Below, in pieces: positions 4,231 to 40,304 of a stretch of 64,000 nt of DNA. Each line of letters starts with the position of its first letter. The stretch's first letter is position 1. This DNA comes from Bacilli bacterium. GTDB lineage: Bacteria; Bacillota_I; Bacilli_A; RF39; UBA660. The stretch lies in the NCBI GenBank assembly GCA_017512495.1, contig JAFWGF010000041.1, forward strand, positions 5,773-69,772, in the 5' to 3' direction. Under the pieces are notes generated by a model. It saw only the letters and a list, made by a program, of their open reading frames with translations. It was not told the DNA's origin and did not search any database. The position numbers and the translations under genes are program-made.

Positions 4231-5039
4231 TCAACAATTACTATCATATAATTCATTAGCTAAATCAACAAATGTTTCAACACTTAGCATCTCTGCGCGT
4301 GCATTTAAATCAAAATTATATCTATTAAGAACTTTTTCAACTATTTCCAAATTGTATTTTTTCAAATTATTTCTAATATTTTTTCTTTTATATTGAAATG
4401 CTTCTTTTAATAATTTTTCAAAATAATCAAAATCTTTTAATGGTAATTTTTCTTCTTTTTCTGTAAAGGAAACTACTACACTATCAACCTTTGGTACTGG
4501 AATAAATTCTTTCTTTGAAACAAATATTTCTTTTTTTATATTATAAAAATAATTTAAAAGAACAGTTATTGAACCATATTCTCTACTTCCTGGAGCTGTT
4601 GAAAATCTATTTCCTACTTCTTTTTGAACCATCATAACAATTTTATTGAATTTTAAATTTGAATTCATTAATTTTAAAATAATTGGCGTTGTTATATAAT
4701 AAGGAACATTACTTACAAAAAAAAGTTTTTCATATTCATATTTAGAAACATCCTCTTTTAAATCAGATACTAAAAAGTCCTTAAAATAATATCAACATTA
4801 GAATATGAATTTAGTTTTATTGCTAATTCATTTTCTAAATCTTTATCTATTTCATAAGCTATTACTTTTTTAGCTCTAGTAGCTAATTCTTTTGTCATTA
4901 TAGCTCCGCCTGGACCAACTTCAATTACCAAAGAATTATTATCAATATCGCAAATATCTACTATTCTTTTTACTATTCGATTATCTTTCAAAAAATTTTG
5001 CCCAAACTTTTTTTTAAAACTTACATTATACTTTTCCAT
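4231..5039 (-). pseudogene. rsmA: 16S rRNA (adenine1518/1519-N6)-dimethyltransferase RsmA/KsgA, split by a 1-nt frameshift
   Basis: Two adjacent ORFs cover the N-terminal and C-terminal parts of KsgA. The first (4770..5039) reads FGQNFL...EVGPGGAIMT...YEIDKDL...NVDIIL and then stops. The second (4231..4668) reads MMVQKEVGNRF.... The second frame is open back to 4791 and reads ...KDFLVSDLKEDVSKYEYEKLFFVSNVPYYITTPIILKLMNS.... The two frames join if one base is added in the T4/A2 run at 4781-4786. Confidence 0.8.
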
Positions 5040-5769: not shown

Positions 5770-6372
5770 CTAATTAGCTTTTCCGTTAATTACTACTTCA
5801 ACACTATAATTTCCTGTTTGAACAACACTACTACTTGATAACCATAGTCTTAATCTATAATTATCTTTTAAAGATTTAGTTGTCTTTTCCTTTACTAGAA
5901 CCATACTTCCTTCAGGAGAACCTAATTTTGTATCTTTCTTTAAAGACTTATATACAGATGGTCCAAAAACCTTATTGTAAGTTCCACTTTCTTCTTTCTC
6001 TAAATAAATTTTCATATCATCATCACTAAGTGTTGATATTCTTTCGTTTTTTATTACAGCTATTTCATATTCAATTGAATTAGCTTCATCAACATCAATA
6101 TCAACTGAAAAATCAAAGTATTGTCCTTCTTTATCATTTTTCATACCAACAGAATCTTCAGTTGGAGTAATCTGGGTTAAATTCAAACCAGTAATATTAT
6201 TAGTATAATTTAATACTATATTTCCACCCTTTACCTTTTTCTCTATAACTTCTTCTTCTCTATTAGCAAACAAGAAAAAGATAATTCCTACAAAAACAAT
6301 TAAAACTAGACATACTCCAAGAAGTACATACCAAAATTTTCTAGATAATTCCCCACTCTTTTTATTCTCCAT
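5770..6372 (-). CDS. Hypothetical secreted or membrane-anchored protein, paralog of 6381..6974
   Basis: 200 aa. An N-terminal TM/signal-anchor (FWYVLLGVCLVLIVFVGIIFFLF) is followed by a beta-rich domain. It shares blocks with its neighbour: SIEYEIAVIKN vs TVEYEIYINK, and NYRLRLWLSSSSVV vs KLILRSWLSDSYVV. Confidence 0.6.
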   Translation of the reverse strand: MENKKSGELSRKFWYVLLGVCLVLIVFVGIIFFLFANREEEVIEKKVKGGNIVLNYTNNITGLNLTQITPTEDSVGMKNDKEGQYFDFSVDIDVDEANSIEYEIAVIKNERISTLSDDDMKIYLEKEESGTYNKVFGPSVYKSLKKDTKLGSPEGSMVLVKEKTTKSLKDNYRLRLWLSSSSVVQTGNYSVEVVINGKAN

Positions 6373-6380
6373 ATTTCCTC

Positions 6381-6974
6381 CTATTTAGTCCTTACATATA
6401 CATCATAATTAAAGCTATGTTGCTCATTGGATACTACATAACTATCTGATAACCATGAGCGTAATATTAATTTTTGTTTTTCCTTTTCTTTTATTGTTCC
6501 TCTATATAAAAGATTACTACTAGGTAAATCCATTAAAACTGGTAAATCATTATAAGTAGGAATTGCATTTTTTTCAAACCCTTTCAAAGGATTATCTGCT
6601 TCATCAGTTAAATAATATTTAATATAATTTCCTCTTATTTCATCTGATAATTGGATTTTATTGATATATATTTCATATTCAACTGTCCTTGATAAATTAT
6701 TAGTAATACTAATTTCCATATATCCTTGTATACCTGTATCAGTTCCCTTACCATCGATTTTCTTGCCTAATTCATCAGAAATTGGTAAATCACTCGTAAT
6801 TATTATATTTTTAGATTTATCAAATTTTACCGTAATATCATCTGATGAGTTTGATTGCTTATGACTATTAAAATAAAAAATACTAAAAACAAATGAAAGA
6901 ACGAATAAAATTAATACTATAGATATTGCTGTTACAACTTGTTTTTTATTCTTTTTTAACATAGCATCACTCAC
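6381..6974 (-). CDS. Hypothetical secreted or membrane-anchored protein, paralog of 5770..6372
   Basis: 197 aa with an N-terminal TM/signal-anchor (VVTAISIVLILFVLSFVFSIFYF). Architecture and conserved blocks match the downstream gene, and it is co-directional with sipW. Confidence 0.6.
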   Translation of the reverse strand: MSDAMLKKNKKQVVTAISIVLILFVLSFVFSIFYFNSHKQSNSSDDITVKFDKSKNIIITSDLPISDELGKKIDGKGTDTGIQGYMEISITNNLSRTVEYEIYINKIQLSDEIRGNYIKYYLTDEADNPLKGFEKNAIPTYNDLPVLMDLPSSNLLYRGTIKEKEKQKLILRSWLSDSYVVSNEQHSFNYDVYVRTK

Positions 6975-7788: not shown

Positions 7789-7815
7789 CAAAAAAAAGAA
7801 GATTGGTATCTTCTA
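7789..7815 (-). terminator. Rho-independent terminator after metG
   Basis: Hairpin agaagat/atcttct (7797-7803 / 7808-7814) overlaps the metG stop codon. It is followed on the minus strand by a U-run (plus-strand A-run 7790-7797). Confidence 0.5.
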
Positions 7816-9348
7816 TTTTTCTTGAATTCTTAAGAAGATTGGTTTTGGATCATTAAGTTCATATTTATTATCTTCTACAAAATTTAATTCTTGATTATCA
7901 ATATTAATTTGTCTTAATATTTCCTCACTTGTCTCAGGTAAGAATGGTTCTAAAAGACTGGCACATACCCTTATTGATTCCAACAAGTGATATAAAACTG
8001 TTTCTAACTCATCTTTTTTGCTTTCATCCTTAGCTAAAACCCATGGAGTAGTTTCATCAATGTATTTATTACTTGCTCTTAGAACTTCAAATATTTCACT
8101 AATAGCATCACTTATTTGTAATTCATCCATCTTAGCAGTTACTTTTTCATCTAAGTTATTTATATTTTTAATAAACTTCTCAGAAAATTCATTACTTACT
8201 TTCTTATTAGCAACTTTTCCATCAAAATACTTTTTACCCATTGAAATAGTTCTTTGAACTAAGTTACCTAAAACATTAGCTAAGTCTCCATTAATTCTTT
8301 CTATCAATAAATCTCTAGTAAATATTCCATCATTAGCAAATGGGATTTCATGTAGAAAATAATATCTAACAGCATCTACACCAAATTCTTCTACTAAATC
8401 ATCAGCATAAACTACATTACCTATTGATTTAGACATTTTTCCATCTGCCATAATTAACCATGGATGTCCAAATACTTGTTTTGGTAATGGCACATCCAGA
8501 CTCATTAAGAAGCATGGCCAATAGATAGTATGGAATCTAATAATATCTTTACCTATTAAATGAAGATCACATGGCCATTTATACTTAAATTCTTCATTAC
8601 CACCATCAGTATCATAACCAATATTAGTAATATAGTTACTTAAAGCATCTAACCATACATAAACTACATGCTTATCATCGAAGTCTACTGGAATTCCCCA
8701 TTTAAATGAAGTTCTTGATACACATAAATCTTGTAAGCCTGGCTTAATGAAGTTATTCATCATTTCATTCTTACGCGATTCAGGTTGAATAAATTCTGGA
8801 TGTTTTTCAATATGTTCTTCTAATTGTTTTTGATATTTACTAAGTTTAAAGAAATATGCTTCTTCACTCTTTTTTTCTACTTCTCTACCACATTCAGGAC
8901 AAACTAATTTACCATCTTCATTTTCTACAACTTGACTATCAGTCCAAAATGCTTCATCAGGAGTACAATACCATCCTTCATATTTACCTAAATAGATATC
9001 TCCTTTGTCATACATATACTTAAAAATATGTTGAATTACTTTTTCGTGTGCTGGATCAGTAGTTCTAACAAAGCGATCATAGCTAGTATTCATAATATCC
9101 CAAATACGTTTAATTTCAGCAGCTACTTCATCCACAAATTCCTGTGGAGTTTTACCTGCTTCTTTTGCTTTTAATTCAATCTTTTCTCCATGTTCATCAG
9201 TACCAGTTTGAAAATAAACATCATAGCCTTTTAATCTTTTAAATCTAGCTATCGCATCAGCTAAAACAATCTCATAAGTATTACCAATATGAGGTTTTCC
9301 TGAAGTATATGCAATTGCAGTTGAAATGTAGTATTTTTCTTTTTCCAT
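7813..9348 (-). CDS. metG: Methionine--tRNA ligase
   Basis: YISTAIAYTSGKPHIGN (HIGH-type motif), KMSKS, and a CPECG zinc knuckle. I place the start at ATG 9348 (MEKEKYY) with GGAGGGA upstream. The 21-aa extension in the ORF track translates the T-box terminator region. Confidence 0.9.
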   Translation of the reverse strand: MEKEKYYISTAIAYTSGKPHIGNTYEIVLADAIARFKRLKGYDVYFQTGTDEHGEKIELKAKEAGKTPQEFVDEVAAEIKRIWDIMNTSYDRFVRTTDPAHEKVIQHIFKYMYDKGDIYLGKYEGWYCTPDEAFWTDSQVVENEDGKLVCPECGREVEKKSEEAYFFKLSKYQKQLEEHIEKHPEFIQPESRKNEMMNNFIKPGLQDLCVSRTSFKWGIPVDFDDKHVVYVWLDALSNYITNIGYDTDGGNEEFKYKWPCDLHLIGKDIIRFHTIYWPCFLMSLDVPLPKQVFGHPWLIMADGKMSKSIGNVVYADDLVEEFGVDAVRYYFLHEIPFANDGIFTRDLLIERINGDLANVLGNLVQRTISMGKKYFDGKVANKKVSNEFSEKFIKNINNLDEKVTAKMDELQISDAISEIFEVLRASNKYIDETTPWVLAKDESKKDELETVLYHLLESIRVCASLLEPFLPETSEEILRQINIDNQELNFVEDNKYELNDPKPIFLRIQEK

Positions 9349-9361
9349 TTTTATCCCTCCT

Positions 9362-9592
9362 AAAATAAAAAAAGTTATTATAAACATAAGGACGATTATT
9401 CGCGGTACCACCTTATTTTATAATAACTCGTATTATACACTCAAATAGTTAACGCCTATCTACGTCCATACCTACATATCGATATAGAAGTTCAGAAGCC
9501 ATACTTATGTACTAATTTAATACTCTTTTTCACCAACCGAGTTCTCTAAAATTAAATATTTTATACATAAGCTCTTCATCAACACATTTCAA
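9362..9592 (-). promoter_or_regulatory. T-box leader (Met specifier) upstream of metG
   Basis: The minus strand carries the conserved T-box core GGTGGTACCGCG (9412-9401). It also has a Stem-I-like GATGAAGAG...AGAGAACTCGGTTGGTGAAAAAGAG, an AGTATGG segment with AUG in the expected specifier position, and a long helix GTTATTATAAAATAAGG...CCTTATGTTTATAATAAC followed by a T-run just before the RBS. Confidence 0.8.
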
Positions 9593-20737: not shown

Positions 20738-20750
20738 ATTTCCTCCAAAC

Positions 20751-20828
20751 AAAAAGTGCACATGGAAGTTGAATCTTAAGGCTGCTATCTTCCGATCCTG
20801 ACCTGGTTCAATTGCTTCCATTGCACGT
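20751..20828 (-). ncRNA. ffs: Small (4.5S-type) signal recognition particle RNA
   Basis: The minus strand reads GUGCAAUGGAAGCAAUUGAACCAGGUCAGGAUCGGAAGAUAGCAGCCUUAAGAUUCAACUUCCAUGUGCAC-UUUUU. This is a single long hairpin containing the conserved domain IV core CCAGGUCAGG...GGAA...AGCAGCC. A TTTACT-17nt-TACAAT promoter lies just upstream. Confidence 0.8.
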
Positions 20829-20892
20829 ATATATTGTAATATAAAGAATTAAAAAAGTAAACTTTTATATTTATTTTGTCCTTTTTTATCTA

Positions 20893-20908
20893 TGTTTCAC
20901 GTGAAACA
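20893..20908. promoter_or_regulatory. parS-type site 1 (TGTTTCACGTGAAACA, perfect palindrome)
   Basis: 16/16 match to the B. subtilis Spo0J/ParB parS consensus TGTTNCACGTGAAACA. The palindrome extends to 22 bp (CTATGTTTCACGTGAAACATAG, 20890-20911). Confidence 0.85.
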
Positions 20909-20917
20909 TAGATAAAT

Positions 20918-20933
20918 TATTTCCTGGGAAATA
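20918..20933. promoter_or_regulatory. NBS-type site 1 (TATTTCCTGGGAAATA)
   Basis: One central mismatch to the B. subtilis Noc-binding-site consensus (T)ATTTCCCGGGAAAT(A). Confidence 0.7.
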
Positions 20934-20955
20934 TTTTTTTATTCTATTTTAATTA

Positions 20956-20971
20956 TGTTTCACGTGAAACG
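20956..20971. promoter_or_regulatory. parS-type site 2 (TGTTTCACGTGAAACG)
   Basis: 15/16 match to the parS consensus; the only difference is the last base. Confidence 0.8.
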
Positions 20972-20980
20972 TTATCATTT

Positions 20981-20996
20981 TATTTCCCAAGAAATA
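20981..20996. promoter_or_regulatory. NBS-type site 2 (TATTTCCCAAGAAATA)
   Basis: Two central mismatches to the NBS consensus; the outer arms TATTTCC/GAAATA are intact. Confidence 0.6.
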
Positions 20997-21018
20997 TTTT
21001 TTTATTCTATTTTAATTA

Positions 21019-21034
21019 TGTTTCACGTGAAACG
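21019..21034. promoter_or_regulatory. parS-type site 3 (TGTTTCACGTGAAACG)
   Basis: 15/16 match to the parS consensus. Confidence 0.8.
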
Positions 21035-21043
21035 TTATCATTT

Positions 21044-21059
21044 TATTTCCCGGGAAATA
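21044..21059. promoter_or_regulatory. NBS-type site 3 (TATTTCCCGGGAAATA, perfect)
   Basis: Exact match to the palindromic Noc-binding-site consensus. Confidence 0.8.
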
Positions 21060-21081
21060 TTTTTTTATTCTATTTTAATTA

Positions 21082-21097
21082 TGTTTCACGTGAAACG
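21082..21097. promoter_or_regulatory. parS-type site 4 (TGTTTCACGTGAAACG)
   Basis: 15/16 match to the parS consensus. Confidence 0.8.
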
Positions 21098-21106
21098 TTA
21101 TCATTT

Positions 21107-21122
21107 TATTTCCCAAGAAATA
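21107..21122. promoter_or_regulatory. NBS-type site 4 (TATTTCCCAAGAAATA)
   Basis: Same variant as NBS-type site 2. Confidence 0.6.
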
Positions 21123-21143
21123 TTTTTTTATTCTTCTTATCTA

Positions 21144-21159
21144 TGTTTCACGTGAAACA
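21144..21159. promoter_or_regulatory. parS-type site 5 (TGTTTCACGTGAAACA, perfect palindrome)
   Basis: 16/16 match to the parS consensus, with the same CTATG flank as site 1. Confidence 0.85.
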
Positions 21160-21167
21160 CCATCAAT

Positions 21168-21183
21168 TATTTCCTGGGAAATA
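21168..21183. promoter_or_regulatory. NBS-type site 5 (TATTTCCTGGGAAATA)
   Basis: Same variant as NBS-type site 1. Confidence 0.7.
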
Positions 21184-21189
21184 ATTTTA

Positions 21190-21222
21190 AAAAATAAAAA
21201 GATACAATTTTGTATCTTTTTA
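21190..21222 (-). terminator. Rho-independent terminator after gyrA
   Basis: Hairpin aaaagataca/tgtatctttt (21197-21206 / 21211-21220) overlaps the gyrA stop codon. T-runs follow on both strands. Confidence 0.6.
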
Positions 21223-23664
21223 TTGATTTTCTACAATATTATCTGATTCTTCCTCTTTTTCTACTAAAGCAACTGTAGAAACTTTTTGGTCTTCTTTAAG
21301 ATTAATCAATCTAACTCCTTGGGTTGCACGTTTTAATGTAGATACTTGATCTAGAGGTAATTTGATAATAATACCGCTATTAGTCATAATCATTAAATCT
21401 AATGGAGCATCGACCTTTAAACACTTTAATGATGACATCATACCATTCTTTTCTGTAACATTAAGAGCTTTAACTCCTTTGCTACCTCTATGAGTTAATC
21501 GATATTCATCAACTACAGTTTGTTTTCCATAACCATTTTCAGTAACAATTAATACCATATCACCAGAAGATACAACCTCTGCTCCAACTACTATAGATCC
21601 ATCAAGTTCTATTCCTTTAACACCAGAACTACTTCTACCCATGCATCTAACTTCGTTTTCATTAAATCTTACTAATCTACCATTGCTGGCACCAATAACT
21701 ATTTCCCTATTTCCATCAGTACTCTTAACGCTAATTAATTCATCATCTTCTTTTAGAACAATAGCAATTTTTCCACTCTTTCTAATATTATCAAATTCGT
21801 TGATACTAGTACGTTTTACAATACCTTTCTTAGTTGCAAACATTAAGTATTTAGTAAAATCATCATCTTGCTTTATATTTATTATCGAACTAATGTTCTC
21901 ATCTTTTTCTAGTGGTAATAGATTAATTATTGGTAAACCTTTAGATTGTCTAGAGAATTCTGGAATCTCATAACCTTTCATTCTATATACTTTTCCTTTA
22001 TTTGAGAAGAATAAGATATAGTCATGTGTAGATGATGAAATTAAATGTTCTACAAAGTCTTCTTCATTAGTTGCCATACCTTTAATTCCTACACCACCAC
22101 GGTTTTGAGTTCTATAAGTATCACTCTTTAATCTCTTAATATAACCTTTGTTAGTTAAATTAATTACAATATCCTCTTCTGGGATTAAAGATTCATCTTC
22201 AATATATTCGATAGCTGTCATATCAATACTTGTACGTCTTTCATCACCGTATTTTTGTTTAATTTCAAGTAATTCATTCTTAATTACTTCTAAAATTCTT
22301 GCTTCACTAGCTAAGATTGCTTTTAATTCTTCAATTGTTTTCATTAAATCAGCAAGTTCATTTTCAATTTTTTCACGCTCTAAACCAGTTAATCTACGTA
22401 ATTTCATCTCTAAAATTGCATTTGATTGTACTTCAGTTAGTTTAAATCTACTCATTAATGTATCTTTAGCTATTTCATCAGTTTTAGATCCACGAATTAC
22501 TTTAATAACTTCATCAATATTATCTAAAGCTATTTTTAAGCCTTCTAAGATATGTACTCTTTTTTCAGCAACATCTAAATCAAATCTAGTTCTTCTAATA
22601 ATTACTTCTTTTTGATAATCAATATATTTTACAATTATATCTTTTAATCCAAGAGTTTTAGGAACTCCTTGATCTAACATTAAGAAGATAATTCCATATG
22701 ATGTTTGAAAAGATGTGTGTTTATATAACTTATTTAATACTACTTGAGCATTAGCATCTCTCTTTAAAGTAATTGTTATCTTAATACCATTCTTTAAATC
22801 AGAATGATAATCAGAAATACCTTCAATAATCTTATTATGAACTAATTCAGCTACTTTATTCTTTAAATCCAAAGTATTTATACCGTAAGGTACTTCATCA
22901 ATAATAATTTGTTGTTTTCCATTACTTTCTTCGATAGTAGCCCTACTTCTAACTGTAATAGTTCCCCTACCAGTTTCATAAGCCTTTCTAATACCACTAT
23001 TTCCAAGGATAATTGCTCCTGTAGGAAAATCAGGTCCCTTAATATATTTCATTAATTCATCTAATTCAATATCAGGATTATCAATATACGCAACACATCC
23101 ATCAATAACTTCACTTAAGTTATGAGGTGGAATATTTGTTGCCATACCAACAGCTATACCTGTAGTTCCATTTACTAAAATATTAGGGAATCTAGATGGT
23201 AAAACAACTGGTTCCTTTTCACTTTCATCAAAATTTGGTACAAAATCAACAGTATTTTTATTGATATTTCTTAATAATTCCAATGATATTTTTGATAAAC
23301 GAGATTCTGTGTAACGCATTGCGGCTGCACCATAACCTTCAATATTACCAAAGTTACCATGTCCATCTATTAACATATATCTATAAGAGAAATCTTGAGC
23401 CATACGAACCATAGCTTCATAGATTGAAGAATCTCCATGTGGATGGAAATTACCCATAACTTCTCCGACTGTTTTAGCACTCTTTCTATGAGGTTTATCA
23501 GGTGTATATCCAGAAGAATACATAGAATATAATATTCTTCTATGAACAGGCTTTAAACCATCTCTTAAGTCTGGAATAGCACGCGCTGTGATAACACTCA
23601 TTGAATAGTCTAAAAATGAATCTTGTACTTCTTTTACTATATTGTTATTTTCTAACCTATCCAT
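21220..23664 (-). CDS. gyrA: DNA gyrase subunit A
   Basis: 814 aa. [18 protein letters not shown], the quinolone-resistance-region-type [17 protein letters not shown], and a C-terminal beta-pinwheel. It follows gyrB. Confidence 0.97.
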
Positions 23665-26818: not shown

Positions 26819-26846
26819 ACAAAAAAATAGTTTTTCAACTATTTTT
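26819..26846 (-). terminator. Possible terminator after the comK-like gene
   Basis: Short hairpin atagtt/aactat around the stop codon, followed on the minus strand by a U-run. The stem is weak and AT-rich. Confidence 0.35.
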
Positions 26847-27281
26847 ATGATTTCTTAATATAATATCTAATCTTGATGCCCTAGATAATTGATTTTCTAT
26901 AGTTCGATATGAGCAATTAACAATTAATTCTTTATCATTATCAAAGATTATTTTAGCGTTATTATAATTGTATTTTTCTATCTTTTTTACCCTTTTTAAA
27001 GATATCCAAACACAATCTTCTGATTGTGGTGATGTTGTTGGAAAAACTATTAGATTATCACTATCTTCAATAACTATAGGTACTTTATACTCTGCGCCTA
27101 AAATATTTCTAGCACCTTCTTTTCTACCTTCATAAGTACTACCAAAGTATTTGCAACTTTCTTCCATAATACTAAATGGACTTTGATCAATAACATAATT
27201 ATCATTATCCTCATAAACTAAACTACTCTTTTCACCTTTAGGTACTAATGCTAAAGTACCCCTATTAATTTCATATTTCAT
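26835..27281 (-). CDS. comK: ComK family competence transcription factor
   Basis: 148 aa. SCKYFGSTYEGRKEGARNILG..YKVPIVIE...IVFPTTSPQSEDCVWISL aligns block for block with B. subtilis ComK (SCRFFGSSYAGRK...KPPIMVD...FLFPTLS...QCGWIS). Confidence 0.8.
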   Translation of the reverse strand: MKYEINRGTLALVPKGEKSSLVYEDNDNYVIDQSPFSIMEESCKYFGSTYEGRKEGARNILGAEYKVPIVIEDSDNLIVFPTTSPQSEDCVWISLKRVKKIEKYNYNNAKIIFDNDKELIVNCSYRTIENQLSRASRLDIILRNHKNS

Positions 27282-30097: not shown

Positions 30098-30340
30098 GAC
30101 TCATTAACAATTTTTATTCTACATTAAATTATTGAAAAAATAAACGTTTTTTGCTTAAAAAAAACAATTCACAGACTATCCACAAAATAATTCACAAACA
30201 AAATAATTGAATTATAATAAAAAAATGAATTTTCCACATTTTCCACAAATTTATAATAAACAAGTTAAAAAGAATTATTAACAGACCTGTGAATATGTTA
30301 AAAACAACTTTTAATTGACAAAACAACAAGAATATTATTA
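30098..30340. promoter_or_regulatory. oriC part 1: DnaA-box cluster between dnaA and rpmH
   Basis: CTATCCACA at 30176-30184 (8/9). Two abutting TTTTCCACA boxes at 30230-30238 and 30239-30247 (8/9 each). TAATTCACA at 30188-30196 (7/9). TGTGAATAT at 30288-30296 (reverse orientation, 7/9). Confidence 0.75.
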
Positions 30341-30373
30341 TAATAATGTAGATTTATGTTTGGAGGTGGAAAA

Positions 30374-30496
30374 ATGAAAAGAACATATCAACCAAATAAT
30401 CGTAAAAAATCTAAAAGACTTGGTTTTTTCGCACGTAAAAAAACAAATATCTTAAATCGTCGTCGTCGTAAAGGACGCAAAGTACTATGTAAATAA
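30374..30496 (+). CDS. rpmH: 50S ribosomal protein L34
   Basis: Not in the ORF track because it is under 60 aa. Translation is [40 protein letters not shown] with GGAGGTGGA upstream. Confidence 0.93.
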
Positions 30497-30499
30497 AAT

Positions 30500-30524
30500 A
30501 CCGCTGCAAAACAGTGGTTTTTTA
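30500..30524 (+). terminator. Hairpin plus T-run between rpmH and rnpA (attenuating terminator)
   Basis: ACCGCTG-caaaa-CAGTGGT followed by TTTTTT. Confidence 0.55.
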
Positions 30525-30546
30525 CTCTGGTGAGGGGTGATTAATC

Positions 30547-30882
30547 ATAAAAAAGCTATATATTGTAAAAACAACAAGAGATTTTGATGATATTATAAAA
30601 ACTGGTCAATTTATAAAGAATAAATATTTTTCTATATATTATAAGGATAATAATTTGCCATATGATAGATTTGGAATATCTGTTAGTAAGAAATTAGGAA
30701 ATGCTGTATTTAGAAATAAATATAAGAGAAAAATACGTTCTATTGTAGATAATTACAAAAAAAAGTATATTAATAGTAGAGATTATATTATAATATTAAG
30801 AAAAGAAGCCATAACAAGAGAATTTGTTGAATTAAATCAAGAATTTTTGAATTTGATTTTGCAAATTCAGAAAGGAAAGTAA
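30547..30882 (+). CDS. rnpA: Ribonuclease P protein component (start codon uncertain and apparently non-canonical)
   Basis: The frame is open from 30541. It encodes LIIKKLYIVKTTRDFDDIIKTGQFIKNKYFSIYYKDNN-LPYDRFGISVSKKLGNAVFRNKYKRKIR..., the typical RnpA fold including the N-terminal part. There is no ATG/GTG/TTG before 30655. The SD GGTGAGGGGTGA ends at 30540, which favours ATC 30544 or ATA 30547. Confidence 0.7.
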   Translation: MKKLYIVKTTRDFDDIIKTGQFIKNKYFSIYYKDNNLPYDRFGISVSKKLGNAVFRNKYKRKIRSIVDNYKKKYINSRDYIIILRKEAITREFVELNQEFLNLILQIQKGK

Positions 30883-30883
30883 T

Positions 30884-37256: not shown

Positions 37257-38525
37257 ATGTATCCAGATACTAAAGATGAAGTAGTACAATTATATTTAGA
37301 TGATATTATTCCAAATAGGTTTCAACCAAGAGAAGTATTTGATGAAAAAGCCTTAAAGGAATTAGCTGTATCTATTAAAGAACATGGTGTAATTCAACCA
37401 ATAATTGTACGAAGTGTTAATGGCAAGTATGAAATAATAGCTGGTGAAAGAAGATATAAAGCTTCAGCTTTAGCTGGTCTTACTAAAATTCCCGCTATTG
37501 TAAGAGATTTAGATGATAAAGAAAGTTCAAAAGTAGCATTACTTGAAAACTTACAGAGAAGAAATTTAAACCCTGTAGAAGAAGCTAGAACATATCAAAA
37601 AATCTTAGAAATAGATCAAATGACTCAAGAAGAACTAGCTAGAACAATGGGAAAAAGTCAATCAGCTGTTGCTAATAAAATAAGATTACTTTCTTTACCA
37701 GATGAAATACAAGAATACTTATTAAAAGAAGAATTATCAGAAAGACATGCTAGAGCATTACTTAATATAGAAGATCCTGAAAAGCAAAAAGAAATGGCTA
37801 AGAAAGTCATTGAAAATAAAATGAGTGTTAGAAGCTTGGAAGATGAAATAAAAGTAATGTTAGGAAAAGCTCCAAAAGAAGAAAAAAAAGAAGAAGAAGT
37901 ACCTGAAGTAATAGCGTCAACGAGTGCTTTTGTTAATGATAATCCCTTGAGTATAACAGCTAAATTAGAAGAAGAAAAATCTAATTATGGAAAAGTAACT
38001 ATTGCTCCACCAGAAGGAGAAGAAAATACGATGGGGAAATTTATTAATTATGGAGAAATAGACAAAGAAGAAGAAAAGGAACCATTACCTATTCCTAATG
38101 AAACTACATCAATTAATGTTAATGAGATAAAAGAAAATACTAATGATGTTAAAAATGTAGATAGTAATAATGCTTTAGATAGCTTATTAAACTTAGGAAA
38201 TCCAACATCTTCGGTACCATCAACAGAATTTATAACTCCAGCAGAAAAAATAGTAAAAACAGATTCAATTGATGATGTAGACGATAAGTCATCTGATTAC
38301 TTTAATACTTCAGATTTATCTTCAATAGAATTACCACAAAATGTAATAAATCCTGTAGAAGAAGAGATTTCAGAAAAATACACTGTTGAAGAATCTGTTA
38401 CAAAAATAAAAGATTTGATTGATGATTTAAAAAATCATGGAATAAATGTTAATGCAGATGAAATGGATTTTGAAAAATCATATCAAATAATCATAAAAAT
38501 AGATAAACCAGAAAACAAAGAGTAG
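37257..38525 (+). CDS. noc: Noc-like ParB-family protein with a long acidic low-complexity insertion
   Basis: ParB N-domain IIPNRFQPR...GVIQPIIVR...IIAGERRYKAS. The HTH region GKSQSAVANKIRLLSLP...ELSERHARALL carries Noc-type residues (KSQ, ANK, ERHAR), as in B. subtilis Noc. The C-terminal block ...GINVNADEMDFEKSYQIIIKIDK resembles the Noc C-terminus. The gene sits between rsmG and soj, as in Bacillus. Confidence 0.8.
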   Translation: MYPDTKDEVVQLYLDDIIPNRFQPREVFDEKALKELAVSIKEHGVIQPIIVRSVNGKYEIIAGERRYKASALAGLTKIPAIVRDLDDKESSKVALLENLQRRNLNPVEEARTYQKILEIDQMTQEELARTMGKSQSAVANKIRLLSLPDEIQEYLLKEELSERHARALLNIEDPEKQKEMAKKVIENKMSVRSLEDEIKVMLGKAPKEEKKEEEVPEVIASTSAFVNDNPLSITAKLEEEKSNYGKVTIAPPEGEENTMGKFINYGEIDKEEEKEPLPIPNETTSINVNEIKENTNDVKNVDSNNALDSLLNLGNPTSSVPSTEFITPAEKIVKTDSIDDVDDKSSDYFNTSDLSSIELPQNVINPVEEEISEKYTVEESVTKIKDLIDDLKNHGINVNADEMDFEKSYQIIIKIDKPENKE

Positions 38526-38617: not shown

Positions 38618-39406
38618 ATGGGAAAGATTATATCATTAGTAAATCAAAAAGGTGGGGTTGGTAAGACAACTACTAGTATCAATCTTTCTGCTTCATTGGC
38701 AGTATTAGGTAAAAAAACACTTTTAATAGATCTAGATCCTCAAGGAAATACAACAACAGGAGTAGGTATTAATAAAGGAGAAATTAATAAGAGTATTTAT
38801 GAGGTCCTAACTGGAGAATGTAATATTAATGAAGCAATAGTAAAAACAAAATATAAAGATTTTTATGTTATACCATCAACAATTAATTTAGCAGGATTAA
38901 ATGCTGAATTTTTAGAAAAAAGTAGAACTCAAGCAGGCTATAAAAAAGGAGAACAATTAAAGAACAGCTTAGCAGATATTAAAGATAGTTTTGACTATAT
39001 TATCTTAGATTGTCCACCAGCACTTGATGTTATTACTACAAATGCTTTAACAGCATCAAATTCTGTAATAATACCTGTACAATGTGAATTCTTTGCTTTA
39101 GAAGGAATCACTCAATTATTAAAAACAATTATGTTAGCTCAAAAAACATTAAATCCTAATCTAGATATTGAAGGAGTTTTATTAACAATGTTGGATTCTA
39201 GAACTAATTTAGGATTTGAAGTAGTAGAGGATATAAGAAGTTTCTTTAAAGAAAAGGTATATAATACAATTATTCCAAGATTAGTAAAGCTAACAGAAGC
39301 TCCATCACATGGAGAACCAATAATAACCTATGAACCAAAAAGTAGAGGTGCAGAAGCTTATCTAAATTTAGCAAAGGAAGTGATTGAAAGAAATGGAAAC
39401 AACTAA
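38618..39406 (+). CDS. soj: Chromosome partitioning ATPase Soj/ParA
   Basis: Deviant Walker A NQKGGVGKTTT, DLDPQGN and DCPP motifs; 262 aa. Confidence 0.95.
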   Translation: MGKIISLVNQKGGVGKTTTSINLSASLAVLGKKTLLIDLDPQGNTTTGVGINKGEINKSIYEVLTGECNINEAIVKTKYKDFYVIPSTINLAGLNAEFLEKSRTQAGYKKGEQLKNSLADIKDSFDYIILDCPPALDVITTNALTASNSVIIPVQCEFFALEGITQLLKTIMLAQKTLNPNLDIEGVLLTMLDSRTNLGFEVVEDIRSFFKEKVYNTIIPRLVKLTEAPSHGEPIITYEPKSRGAEAYLNLAKEVIERNGNN

Positions 39407-40304
39407 TATTTCTGAAAGTGGAATTCCTAAAAGAAGAGCTTTAGGAAAAGGTTTAGAAGAATTATTTAATAATGAAGTAATAGACTACAGTGCTGTAGAA
39501 GAAAAAATTGTTAATGAAACACCAAGAGAAGAAGTAGTAATGCTAAAATTAGATGAATTAAGAAGTAATCCATATCAGCCAAGAAAAATATTTGATCAAC
39601 AAGCTTTAAATGAATTAGCTGAATCTATCAAAGAACACGGTGTAATTCAACCAATAATTGCAAAGAAATCAATAAAAGGTTACGAAATAATAGCTGGAGA
39701 AAGAAGAGTAAAAGCATCTATAATAGCAGGATTAACAGAAATACCAGCAATCGTAAAAGACTTTAATGATACTCAAATGATGGAATTGGCTTTACTAGAA
39801 AATCTTCAAAGAGAAGATTTATCTGCTATTGAAGAAGCTACAGCTTATAAAAAATTACAGGAAACATTAGGATTAACTCAAGAAGAATTAGCAAAGAGAT
39901 TAGGTAAAAGTAGAAGCCATATAACAAATATGTTAGGATTATTATCTTTACCATCAGCTATACAAGAAAAAATAACAAATAAAGAATTATCAATGGGACA
40001 TGCTAGAGTATTAAGCAAATTACAAAGTGAAGAACAACAATTATCACTTGCAGAAAGAGTTATTTCAGAAGATTTAAGTGTAAGAGAATTAGAAAGAATA
40101 ACTATGGAACCAACTATAATAAAAACTAATCCTCAAAAGAAAAAAGAATCTAAGAATAATGAATATTCATATCTTCAATCAGAATTAAGTGAAAAATTAG
40201 GGACAAAAGTAGTGATAAAGAAAAATAAAATAGAAATTAGTTTTGTTAATGATAATGATCTAAATAGATTATTAGATTATATGAATATAGAGGTAGAAAA
40301 GTAA
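39393..40304 (+). CDS. spo0J: Chromosome partitioning protein ParB/Spo0J
   Basis: NPYQPRK, GVIQPIIAK and IIAGERRVKAS. The HTH GKSRSHITNMLGLLSLP...LSMGHARVL carries ParB-type residues (KSR, GHAR). I prefer the ATG at 39393; the ORF-track TTG is at 39384. Confidence 0.93.
   Translation: METTNISESGIPKRRALGKGLEELFNNEVIDYSAVEEKIVNETPREEVVMLKLDELRSNPYQPRKIFDQQALNELAESIKEHGVIQPIIAKKSIKGYEIIAGERRVKASIIAGLTEIPAIVKDFNDTQMMELALLENLQREDLSAIEEATAYKKLQETLGLTQEELAKRLGKSRSHITNMLGLLSLPSAIQEKITNKELSMGHARVLSKLQSEEQQLSLAERVISEDLSVRELERITMEPTIIKTNPQKKKESKNNEYSYLQSELSEKLGTKVVIKKNKIEISFVNDNDLNRLLDYMNIEVEK

Follow-up and report, generated by a model that had tools for sequence, protein, structure and literature searches.

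ParB/parS and Noc/NBS are the textbook illustration of how a DNA-binding protein, after duplication, acquired another site and another function. Their sets of sites have been described as spatially separate, with parS near oriC and NBS scattered. In B. subtilis and S. aureus, the 16-bp NBS TATTTCCCGGGAAATA indeed occurs as scattered single copies (Wu 2009; Adams 2015; Pang 2017, PMC5540599; Jalal 2020/2021, PMC7383237, PMC8429893). Specificity for NBS as opposed to parS is set by four positions of the protein, among which Q and R are the switching residues (Jalal et al. 2020, PMC7383237), and a basic residue (K or R) is present at position 179 or at position 184 in about 91% of NBS-specific variants (PMC7383237). 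Noc of S. aureus also acts as a regulator of replication initiation; it keeps the membrane helix and scattered sites, and no origin-adjacent NBS array was reported for it (PMC5540599). The chromosomal ParABS centromeres of B. subtilis, Caulobacter, Streptomyces and Corynebacterium combine consensus, origin-proximal parS sites, dispersed over kilobases, with parA and a ParB bearing a ParA-binding motif. Tandem organization is found in sopC of plasmid F, made of 12 direct repeats of 43 bp, each with an inverted repeat bound by SopB.

We describe here a locus in which both kinds of site are juxtaposed. In the 64-kb window (the whole stretch of DNA analysed), Tandem Repeats Finder detects a single array with 87% matches (Table 1), each unit of which contains one parS and one NBS-type palindrome. 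The locus has the attributes of chromosomal ParABS centromeres listed above, but its parS sites are arranged head-to-tail about every 63 bp in one gap, and each has as its partner a site for another protein of the ParB family. It shares with sopC direct repeats of variable copy number that contain a palindromic site of the ParB family; it differs in being chromosomal, syntenic in 76 species, and in that every unit combines two types of site, each for a different protein. [quoted passage not shown] In a literature search, with most subscription journals outside it, neither interleaved parS/NBS nor a Noc devoid of its membrane helix was found described; the initial annotation likewise gave the parS and NBS of well-studied chromosomes as dispersed single sites.

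That annotation assigned the palindromes to two known types, five parS and five NBS, and the consensus scans bear this out for the most part. The parS consensus TGTTNCACGTGAAACA is matched at all five positions with no or one mismatch, and nowhere else in the 64-kb window with up to two mismatches, where shuffled sequences give an expectation of 0.04. Scanning with ATTTCCCGGGAAAT yields starts at 21045 (no mismatch), 20919 and 21169 (one mismatch), and 20982 and 21108 (two mismatches), and again nothing further in the window (0.17 expected from shuffles). The sites thus greatly exceed chance expectation, and within the window they are restricted to this one locus. All five NBS-type palindromes match ATTTCCCGGGAAAT with 0 to 2 mismatches, but those of units 2 and 4 read TATTTCCCAAGAAATA and do not fit TATTTCCNNGGAAATA. 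Because the base by which NBS and parS differ is changed in one of their half-sites, they are probably weak sites or half sites. The spacing of 25 bp between the centres of parS and NBS, claimed for every unit, is found in units 1 to 4, the fifth having 24 bp.

Table 1. Features of the parS/NBS array and of its surroundings, in window coordinates
Feature	Position	Strand	Description
ffs (small SRP RNA)	20740..20834	-	Rfam RF00169, 56.1 bits; borders the array on the side away from gyrA
ffs promoter-like site	20833..20861	-	TTTACT, 17-nt spacer, TACAAT; consensus match only
Tandem array	20867..21188	.	63-bp period, 5.1 copies; one parS and one NBS-type palindrome per unit
parS 1	20893..20908	.	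TGTTTCACGTGAAACA, 16/16; within a longer 32-bp palindrome (20885-20916)
NBS 1	20918..20933	.	TATTTCCTGGGAAATA, 1 central mismatch; central variant common in relatives
parS 2	20956..20971	.	TGTTTCACGTGAAACG, 15/16
NBS 2	20981..20996	.	TATTTCCCAAGAAATA, 2 mismatches, both in one half-site
parS 3	21019..21034	.	TGTTTCACGTGAAACG, 15/16
NBS 3	21044..21059	.	TATTTCCCGGGAAATA, perfect 16-bp Noc-binding-site consensus
parS 4	21082..21097	.	TGTTTCACGTGAAACG, 15/16
NBS 4	21107..21122	.	TATTTCCCAAGAAATA, same sequence as NBS 2
parS 5	21144..21159	.	TGTTTCACGTGAAACA, 16/16
NBS 5	21168..21183	.	TATTTCCTGGGAAATA, 1 central mismatch
gyrA terminator-like hairpin	21189..21218	-	AGATACAA..TTGTATCT, then a T run on the minus strand; borders the array on the gyrA side; read from the sequence
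gyrA	21220-23664	-	Neighbour of the array
Probable oriC	30098..30883	.	Intergenic, upstream of dnaA; DnaA-box-like sites and GC-skew switch
Noc-lineage ParB paralog	37257..38525	+	422 aa; ParB_N and HTH_ParB domains
parA (soj)	38618..39406	+	Adjoins parB
parB (spo0J)	39393..40304	+	303 aa from ATG; a 303-aa gene is also called in relatives

The array was placed by the initial annotation in the gap between the gyrA terminator and the ffs promoter, about 9 kb from oriC, and gene annotation, GC skew and DnaA boxes all agree with this. A simple hairpin scan omitted the gyrA hairpin, which has too few G-C pairs; on the other side, 32 bp separate parS 1 from the -35 element of the promoter-like site for ffs. 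GC skew switches sign at ~30 kb and DnaA-box-like sites are found at 30176-30752; the array therefore lies about 9 kb from oriC.

Tandem repeats in assemblies of this kind call for caution. The array might be explained as a misassembly, or as a repeat of a mobile or dispersed, REP-like kind, since short-read assemblers have trouble at this locus: two scaffolds contain N gaps within the array, the sequence of one strain of the same species (L127) begins inside it, and two other sequences (L053 and L077) stop within or just past their clusters. Against this, an identical array of five units was recovered in two independent assemblies from different samples (L124 and L125), each sampled region has a single such locus, in the same syntenic place throughout 76 species, and 2.9 million viral contigs gave no match to the parS-NBS pair pattern. 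A mobile or viral origin was dropped on this last ground, and we regard artefact or dispersed repeat as extremely improbable. The copy number of the unit varies between strains of the window's species, a variation that the initial annotation had proposed to look for in related genomes: two of them (L123 and L126) have three units, and L127 has at least three consecutive units with a perfect NBS. As independent assemblies agree and copy number varies, the assembly of the array is trustworthy.

Beyond the window's own species, parS and NBS form clusters in 76 or more species-level genomes of uncultured gut Bacilli with low GC content, whose GyrA is 57-99% identical to that of the window. The clusters occupy the same slot, gyrA-[cluster]-(ffs)/tadA-dnaX, and this conservation of synteny across species indicates that the arrangement is under selection, as judged from sequence comparison. 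The sampled loci of relatives (564 kb in total) contain 211 perfect parS and 160 perfect 16-bp NBS, counts that apply to loci picked by a pattern requiring one close parS-NBS pair and give no frequency among all relatives. Within these arrays the palindromes are intact while the spacers between them diverge. The recurrent feature is a close parS-NBS pair, 23-29 bp from centre to centre; after one selected pair per locus was dropped, 46 of 117 NBS still lay at 19-31 bp from a parS, as compared to 20.4 +/- 3.9 under random placement. A metagenome scan made with DnaA, which returned mostly distant taxa, yielded one clade locus without NBS (L129), whose sequence ends just before the noc position. 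In the separate genome scan, hits outside the clade, mostly from high-GC (largely actinobacterial) genomes and some candidate-phyla genomes, were dropped as parS-NBS pairs, being parS-parS pairs with a degenerate second parS such as GTTTCCCGTGAAAC.

The period of the array and the symmetry of its units are not conserved. The initial annotation saw helical phasing in the 63-bp period; as a selected feature, we abandoned it: the periods of the relatives' arrays are 56, 62, 63, 72, 76, ~79 (L053, taken from site coordinates) and 172 bp, that is, from 5.3 to 16.4 helical turns. Similarly, the A-B-C-B-A symmetry of the units is seen in the window and in L124 and L125, but not in strains L123, L126 and L127 of the same species, whose units differ in number or make-up, and it was rejected as a design. 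Since neither feature is conserved, phasing and symmetry are probably by-products of duplication.

The nature of the second palindrome deserves consideration, since the array stands directly upstream of the ffs promoter-like site. It could conceivably be the operator of an unrelated transcription factor for ffs or gyrA, its identity to NBS being a coincidence. We find this very hard to accept: the identity to the experimentally defined NBS extends over 16 bp, variation is limited to the two central bases, with 14 of 16 positions invariant over 213 sites, the palindrome also occurs inside the dnaX coding region, far from promoters, and among the genes of this origin region is one for a protein whose residues are of the NBS type.

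Two proteins that fit the two site types are encoded in the window, as the initial annotation had proposed from their HTH residues. ParB has R, M, S and G at the specificity positions, i.e., the RxxG type expected for parS, and carries the ParA-binding motif LGKGL at its N-terminus. With consensus sites, an origin-proximal position, this cognate ParB and a ParA all present, the parS of the array agree with chromosomal parS in sequence and setting. The second protein is encoded in the order rsmG-noc-parA-parB and shares with the Noc of B. subtilis and S. aureus this position, its lineage, the switching residues Q and R, CTP motifs and a Noc-like C-terminal domain. Indeed, its best matches in the PDB are Noc structures (2e-62 and 2e-57), with Spo0J behind, and in a neighbour-joining tree of six sequences it groups with Noc (95% bootstrap), the window's ParB grouping with Spo0J. 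Its specificity residues are Q135, K141, S146 and R163, which fit NBS. QK[S/T/A/G]R is found in 119 of 119 homologs; both switching residues and one of the two permissive lysines are present in 114 of them, with close variants in addition. The residues of Noc are Q-K-K-R, with K almost always at the position where the paralog has S. The CTP motifs of the ParB N-terminal domain (PNRFQPR, GERRYKA and ENLQR) are invariant in the paralog, GERR and ENLQR being common to it and ParB.

The paralog departs from Noc of B. subtilis and S. aureus in other respects. Against the NCBIfam Noc model TIGR04285 it scores 291.3 bits, below the 315-bit cut-off (240.3 for the window's ParB). About 21 N-terminal residues, including the amphipathic membrane-targeting helix, are missing in 120 of 120 family members: PNRFQPR is preceded by only 18 residues (39 in Noc of B. 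subtilis), the protein begins with the acidic stretch MYPDTKDE, and there is no in-frame start further upstream. It has no ParA-binding peptide. It contains instead an insert of about 170 residues (~205-375), which AlphaFold2 with 48 homologs predicts to be disordered except for two short helices, and which carries the conserved short motifs AFVNxNPLIPTA, NYGKVTIAPPEGE, KFINYGEI, LDSLLNLG, FITPAEKIVKTD and DYF.

One could still suppose that this is ordinary nucleoid occlusion, carried out by a standard Noc on NBS scattered near the origin, those of the array being just the ones that happen to lie near parS. The lineage, synteny and NBS-type residues of the paralog agree with this, the organism has a cell wall, judging from genes for a class A PBP and an M23 hydrolase, and some NBS stand alone, away from the clusters. 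In relatives such NBS lie downstream of the cluster, 22 of them at more than 1 kb; seven NBS outside clusters were counted in ~453 kb (sequence more than 2 kb downstream or more than 1 kb upstream of clusters, the rest of the window and the noc sides of two relatives), a density similar to that of B. subtilis. It may be, then, that NBS form a broader set, of which the cluster is just the densest portion. However, about 80% of the NBS in the sampled loci are inside parS clusters, and no NBS was found in the 195 kb of sampled loci on the gyrA-dnaA side. The other 63.7 kb of the window contain neither NBS nor parS, and the noc-parAB region is free of both in the window and in 42 kb of relatives, so that no loading site apart from the array is seen there. 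The absence, throughout the family, of the helix that Noc needs for nucleoid occlusion speaks against this explanation, which we consider quite unlikely, and for the same reason an origin centromere with built-in division control, as the initial annotation had envisaged, is unsupported.

We think it probable that the array is a composite centromere near the origin, from which clamps of two kinds, both CTP-dependent, are loaded on the same DNA. ParB would nucleate on the five parS, and the Noc-lineage paralog, whose gene lies 16 kb away beside parA-parB, on the interleaved NBS. As with ParB and Noc in B. subtilis, each dimer, having bound CTP at its own site, would close into a clamp and slide to the flanking DNA, so that one stretch of DNA would become coated by two species of clamp. 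This stretch would include oriC, 9 kb away, if spreading equals that of S. aureus Noc, reported to be 8-10 kb. The ParA-binding peptide of ParB would serve as the handle for segregation, and the long disordered linker of the paralog, through its conserved motifs, might recruit a partner to the origin region. The tandem form could arise by unequal duplication, raising loading capacity. Points that count against this reading are the altered half-site in two of the window's five NBS, the score of the paralog below the Noc cut-off, its S in place of K, and the solo NBS of relatives.

The same two proteins might work against each other. ParB-family clamps are blocked by DNA-bound proteins, and the 16-mers of the array are densely packed, with ~10 bp between them. 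Dimers or clamps of the paralog on NBS might thus obstruct ParB, as roadblocks or by competition, and so restrict how it loads or spreads, or the reverse might hold, making the array a tuning device. The ratio of intact parS to intact NBS indeed varies between species, one relative (L002) having kept seven perfect NBS with decayed parS copies, the opposite of the window. These data fit cooperation equally well, and that 77 or more species (the window's own and 76 relatives) have long kept sites of both types fits either relationship; on balance, antagonism seems to us unlikely.

The Noc-lineage protein of this clade might be a second centromere clamp and not a nucleoid-occlusion factor, loaded beside ParB so that two orthogonal CTP switches operate on one stretch next to oriC. 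We put this forward tentatively, as a reading with somewhat less than even chances. The role of S. aureus Noc in replication initiation offers a possible parallel, that of a Noc-lineage protein acting at or near the origin beyond membrane tethering. The arrangement may preserve an early stage in the evolution of Noc from ParB, in which new sites had appeared among clustered parS and the protein had a single permissive lysine but still no membrane helix; or else Noc may have been re-purposed secondarily, its conserved linker motifs serving a function linked to the origin. The array is a compact sequence (63 bp x n), directly testable in vitro or in a heterologous host, and provides a natural system in which two ParB-family sliding clamps may be studied on shared DNA. 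A whole clade thus juxtaposes what has been described as separate, making it a candidate intermediate in, or alternative outcome of, the neofunctionalisation that led from ParB to Noc.

The array between gyrA and ffs consists of five parS sites, which depart from the consensus TGTTNCACGTGAAACA by 0, 1, 1, 1 and 0 mismatches in array order, interleaved with five NBS-type palindromes, which depart from ATTTCCCGGGAAAT by 1, 2, 0, 2 and 1. Shuffled sequence is expected to give 0.04 and 0.17 matches, respectively, and the five-plus-five composition read in the initial annotation is thus borne out. Its 25-bp centre-to-centre spacing between parS and NBS holds for units 1-4, but is 24 bp in unit 5; likewise, the NBS element that it assigned to every 63-bp unit fits units 1, 3 and 5, whereas units 2 and 4 read TATTTCCCAAGAAATA, in which the changed half-site base is the one distinguishing NBS from parS. 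These two copies are therefore probably weak sites. No other credible parS or NBS was found in the 64 kb, even allowing 4 mismatches; the sole other NBS-like sequence is probably due to chance. The GC skew switches sign near 30 kb and DnaA-box-like sites are grouped upstream of dnaA, which places the array about 9 kb from oriC, as initially estimated.

Coordinates and periods of the features discussed
Locus	Feature	Position or period	Remarks
Window	tandem array	20867-21188	period 63, 5.1 copies, 87% matches
Window	gyrA stop	21220	one border of array
Window	gyrA terminator hairpin	about 21189-21218	between gyrA stop and array; read from sequence
Window	ffs (SRP RNA gene)	20740-20834 (-)	other border; Rfam RF00169
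Window	parS starts	20893, 20956, 21019, 21082, 21144
Window	32-bp perfect palindrome	20885-20916	contains first parS: TTTATCTA-parS-TAGATAAA
Window	NBS-like sequence	1371-1386	TTTTCCCCGGGAGATA, 3 mismatches
Window	DnaA-box-like sites	30176-30752
Window	422-aa ParB-family gene	37257-38525
Window	ComK-family gene	26835-27281 (-)	Pfam ComK, 5.5e-46; between dnaN and recF
Window	T-box leader	9385-9591 (-)	Rfam, 109 bits; upstream of methionyl-tRNA synthetase gene, 7813-9411
L106	phased array	56 bp	7.4 copies
L075	phased array	62 bp	4.1 copies
L075	96-aa ORF, TfoX N-terminal domain	6680-6970	Pfam 2.1e-07; splits one parS-NBS pair from remaining array
L089	phased array	62 bp	3.9 copies
L081	phased array	72 bp	2.8 copies
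L024	phased array	76 bp	3.1 copies
L039	phased array	172 bp	8.7 copies
L002	phased array	about 62-63 bp	7 NBS; site coordinates
L053	phased array	about 79 bp	13 NBS; site coordinates
Relatives	NBS within dnaX	L008:2700, L016:1620, L048:5891 and 5936, L061:3685, L066:6386, L071:1849, L086:2277, L100:6981, L111:5756	and others
L092 (Lactobacillus sp. YT155)	parS-NBS pair	about 4861-4900	TATTTCCTGGGAAATA 9 bp from parS core
L033 (Synergistaceae MAG)	parS-NBS-like close pair	about 5813-5857	doubtful

That the array is an artefact is poorly supported. The TadA encoded beside it has an identical protein sequence on ten public contigs, and their comparison, including the same five units in two independent samples (L124, L125), shows that the array is genuine. 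Three units are present in L123 and L126, L127 begins inside the array with at least three consecutive units bearing a perfect NBS, and two scaffolds of the same species (L121, L122) carry an N run of ~100 nt within it. Copy number and composition differ among strains, or short-read assemblers sometimes collapse units. The symmetric A-B-C-B-A order of unit variants, although reproduced in L124 and L125, does not hold in the three-unit contigs or in the different mix of L127, and is thus not conserved. These centromere repeats are a systematic breakpoint in short-read assemblies, so that copy numbers in MAGs are unreliable; the contigs of two relatives (L053, L077) stop within or just past their clusters.

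One genome per species was scanned for a parS core followed by TTTCCNNNGAAA within 6-16 bp, and at least 120 stretches matched. At least 76 of them, together with the window, are low-GC (23-34%) loci of uncultured gut or rumen 'Bacilli' that share the gene order dnaA-dnaN-comK-like-recF-gyrB-gyrA-[cluster]-tadA-dnaX-ybaB-recR, with GyrA 57-99% identical to that of the window (the clade-like L109 was omitted from the 76 by the filter). Looked for in related genomes, parS-NBS clusters recur at the same locus in at least 76 species, and copy number and period vary among those that form arrays. The 564 kb from the 76 loci listed hold 308 parS (211 perfect) and, when up to 2 mismatches are allowed, 213 NBS (of which 160 are perfect 16-mers), NBS changes being confined to the two central bases; the palindromes are kept across species while the spacers between them diverge. 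A TAGATA flank beside parS, present in the window, is seen again in several relatives (L002, L089, L106). The ComK-family gene also occupies the equivalent position in many relatives (tblastn matches; also called in L208).

True phased arrays, with a parS and an NBS in the repeat unit, occur in several species; in others the clusters are irregular. The helical phasing read from the 63-bp period (six turns) is not kept in this comparison: the periods range from 56 to 172 bp, or 5.3 to 16.4 when divided by 10.5, so that phasing is not the conserved trait. The recurring element is a parS with an NBS close by, at a centre-to-centre distance of 23-29 bp (mode 26-27 bp). Once the pair selected by the search pattern is set aside at each locus, 117 NBS remain, and 46 of these are 19-31 bp away from a parS, against 20.4 +/- 3.9 expected from random placement, these counts being non-independent owing to tandem duplication.

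Non-clade matches are parS-parS pairs in which a degenerate parS, for example GTTTCCCGTGAAAC, takes the second position, in mostly high-GC, largely actinobacterial hosts and some candidate-phyla genomes. In the high-GC, mostly actinobacterial loci, the variant follows a consensus parS by 13-16 bp, usually just upstream of parA (close pairs in L019, L026, L029, L034, L049, L065, L073, L090 and L094), a spacing that resembles that of the parS-NBS pairs. Among the matches listed outside the low-GC clade, only one Lactobacillus has a real parS-NBS pair and one Synergistaceae locus a doubtful one; viral contigs gave zero matches to the pattern.

The surroundings of noc-parAB contain neither site, both in the window and in the two relatives examined, and no NBS lies in the 195 kb on the gyrA-to-dnaA side of the 76 loci. 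In about 13 related species, a perfect or near-perfect 16-bp NBS lies in frame in the variable low-complexity linker of dnaX, 1.1-1.8 kb from the parS cluster, reading (I/N)IS(R/Q)EI in codons rare for a 26% GC genome; it is absent from the window's own dnaX. Seven more solo NBS were found in the 152 kb further downstream. Given these sites, NBS may be scattered at a B. subtilis-like density. A rival explanation is classical nucleoid occlusion in which the local NBS cluster happens to be unusually dense. In the introductions of key papers (including PMC7383237), parS is said to be confined to the oriC region and NBS to be widely dispersed; the unusual feature here is the strong concentration of NBS at the parS cluster.

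Nucleoid occlusion by Noc requires a membrane-targeting amphipathic helix. The 422-aa ParB-family paralog has only 18 residues ahead of PNRFQPR, a motif that 39 residues precede in B. subtilis Noc; its N-terminus (MYPDTKDE) is acidic and there is no in-frame start further upstream. The helix is therefore absent from the whole paralog family. Instead, about 170 aa, disordered in the AlphaFold2 prediction, are inserted between the HTH and the Noc-like C-terminal domains and hold strongly conserved short motifs, near-invariant at residues about 220-350: AFVNxNPLIPTA, NYGKVTIAPPEGE, KFINYGEI, LDSLLNLG, FITPAEKIVKTD and DYF. LDSLLNLG contains no basic residue and is thus unlike a membrane anchor.

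The paralog gene stands in the order rsmG, paralog, parA, parB. Its closest solved relatives are Noc of Geobacillus (2e-62) and of B. subtilis (2e-57), ahead of Spo0J (8e-53), whereas the window's ParB, which carries the LGKGL ParA-binding motif, ranks Spo0J (8.5e-61) above Noc (about 1e-46). A small neighbour-joining tree, in which the Spo0J sequence may be inexact, joins the paralog to the two Nocs in 95% and ParB to Spo0J in 99.7% of bootstraps. The paralog scores 291 bits with the NCBIfam Noc model, under its 315-bit cut-off. Specificity is set by four residues, R-x-x-G in ParB and Q-K-K-R in Noc, with Q and R as the switching residues of Noc and K or R at either middle position in about 91% of NBS-specific variants (Jalal et al. 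2020, PMC7383237). The paralog has Q135, K141, S146 and R163, with QK[S/T/A/G]R in 119 of 119 database homologs, and ParB has R, M, S and G. The HTH types first assigned to the two proteins are in line with this, the paralog having both switching residues and one of the two middle lysines. That the cluster is an unrelated operator is poorly supported.

The reading best supported by these data is that of a composite centromere, on which two paralogous clamps, both CTP-dependent, would be nucleated next to each other, with spreading zones overlapping next to oriC. ParB would supply the ParA handle, and the paralog, lacking membrane helix and ParA motif, probably recruits another partner through its linker motifs; we infer site binding, clamping and partner recruitment from family knowledge. 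A rival is antagonism, one protein acting as a roadblock to the other. Whereas parS, NBS, ParB and Noc are each already known, our literature search found no conserved, interleaved, often tandem parS/NBS arrangement at a fixed origin-proximal locus, in keeping with the initial impression that the array was undescribed, and no Noc lineage lacking the membrane helix and bearing a motif-carrying disordered linker. Such an arrangement and such a Noc lineage are of substantial interest for the ParB/Noc field.
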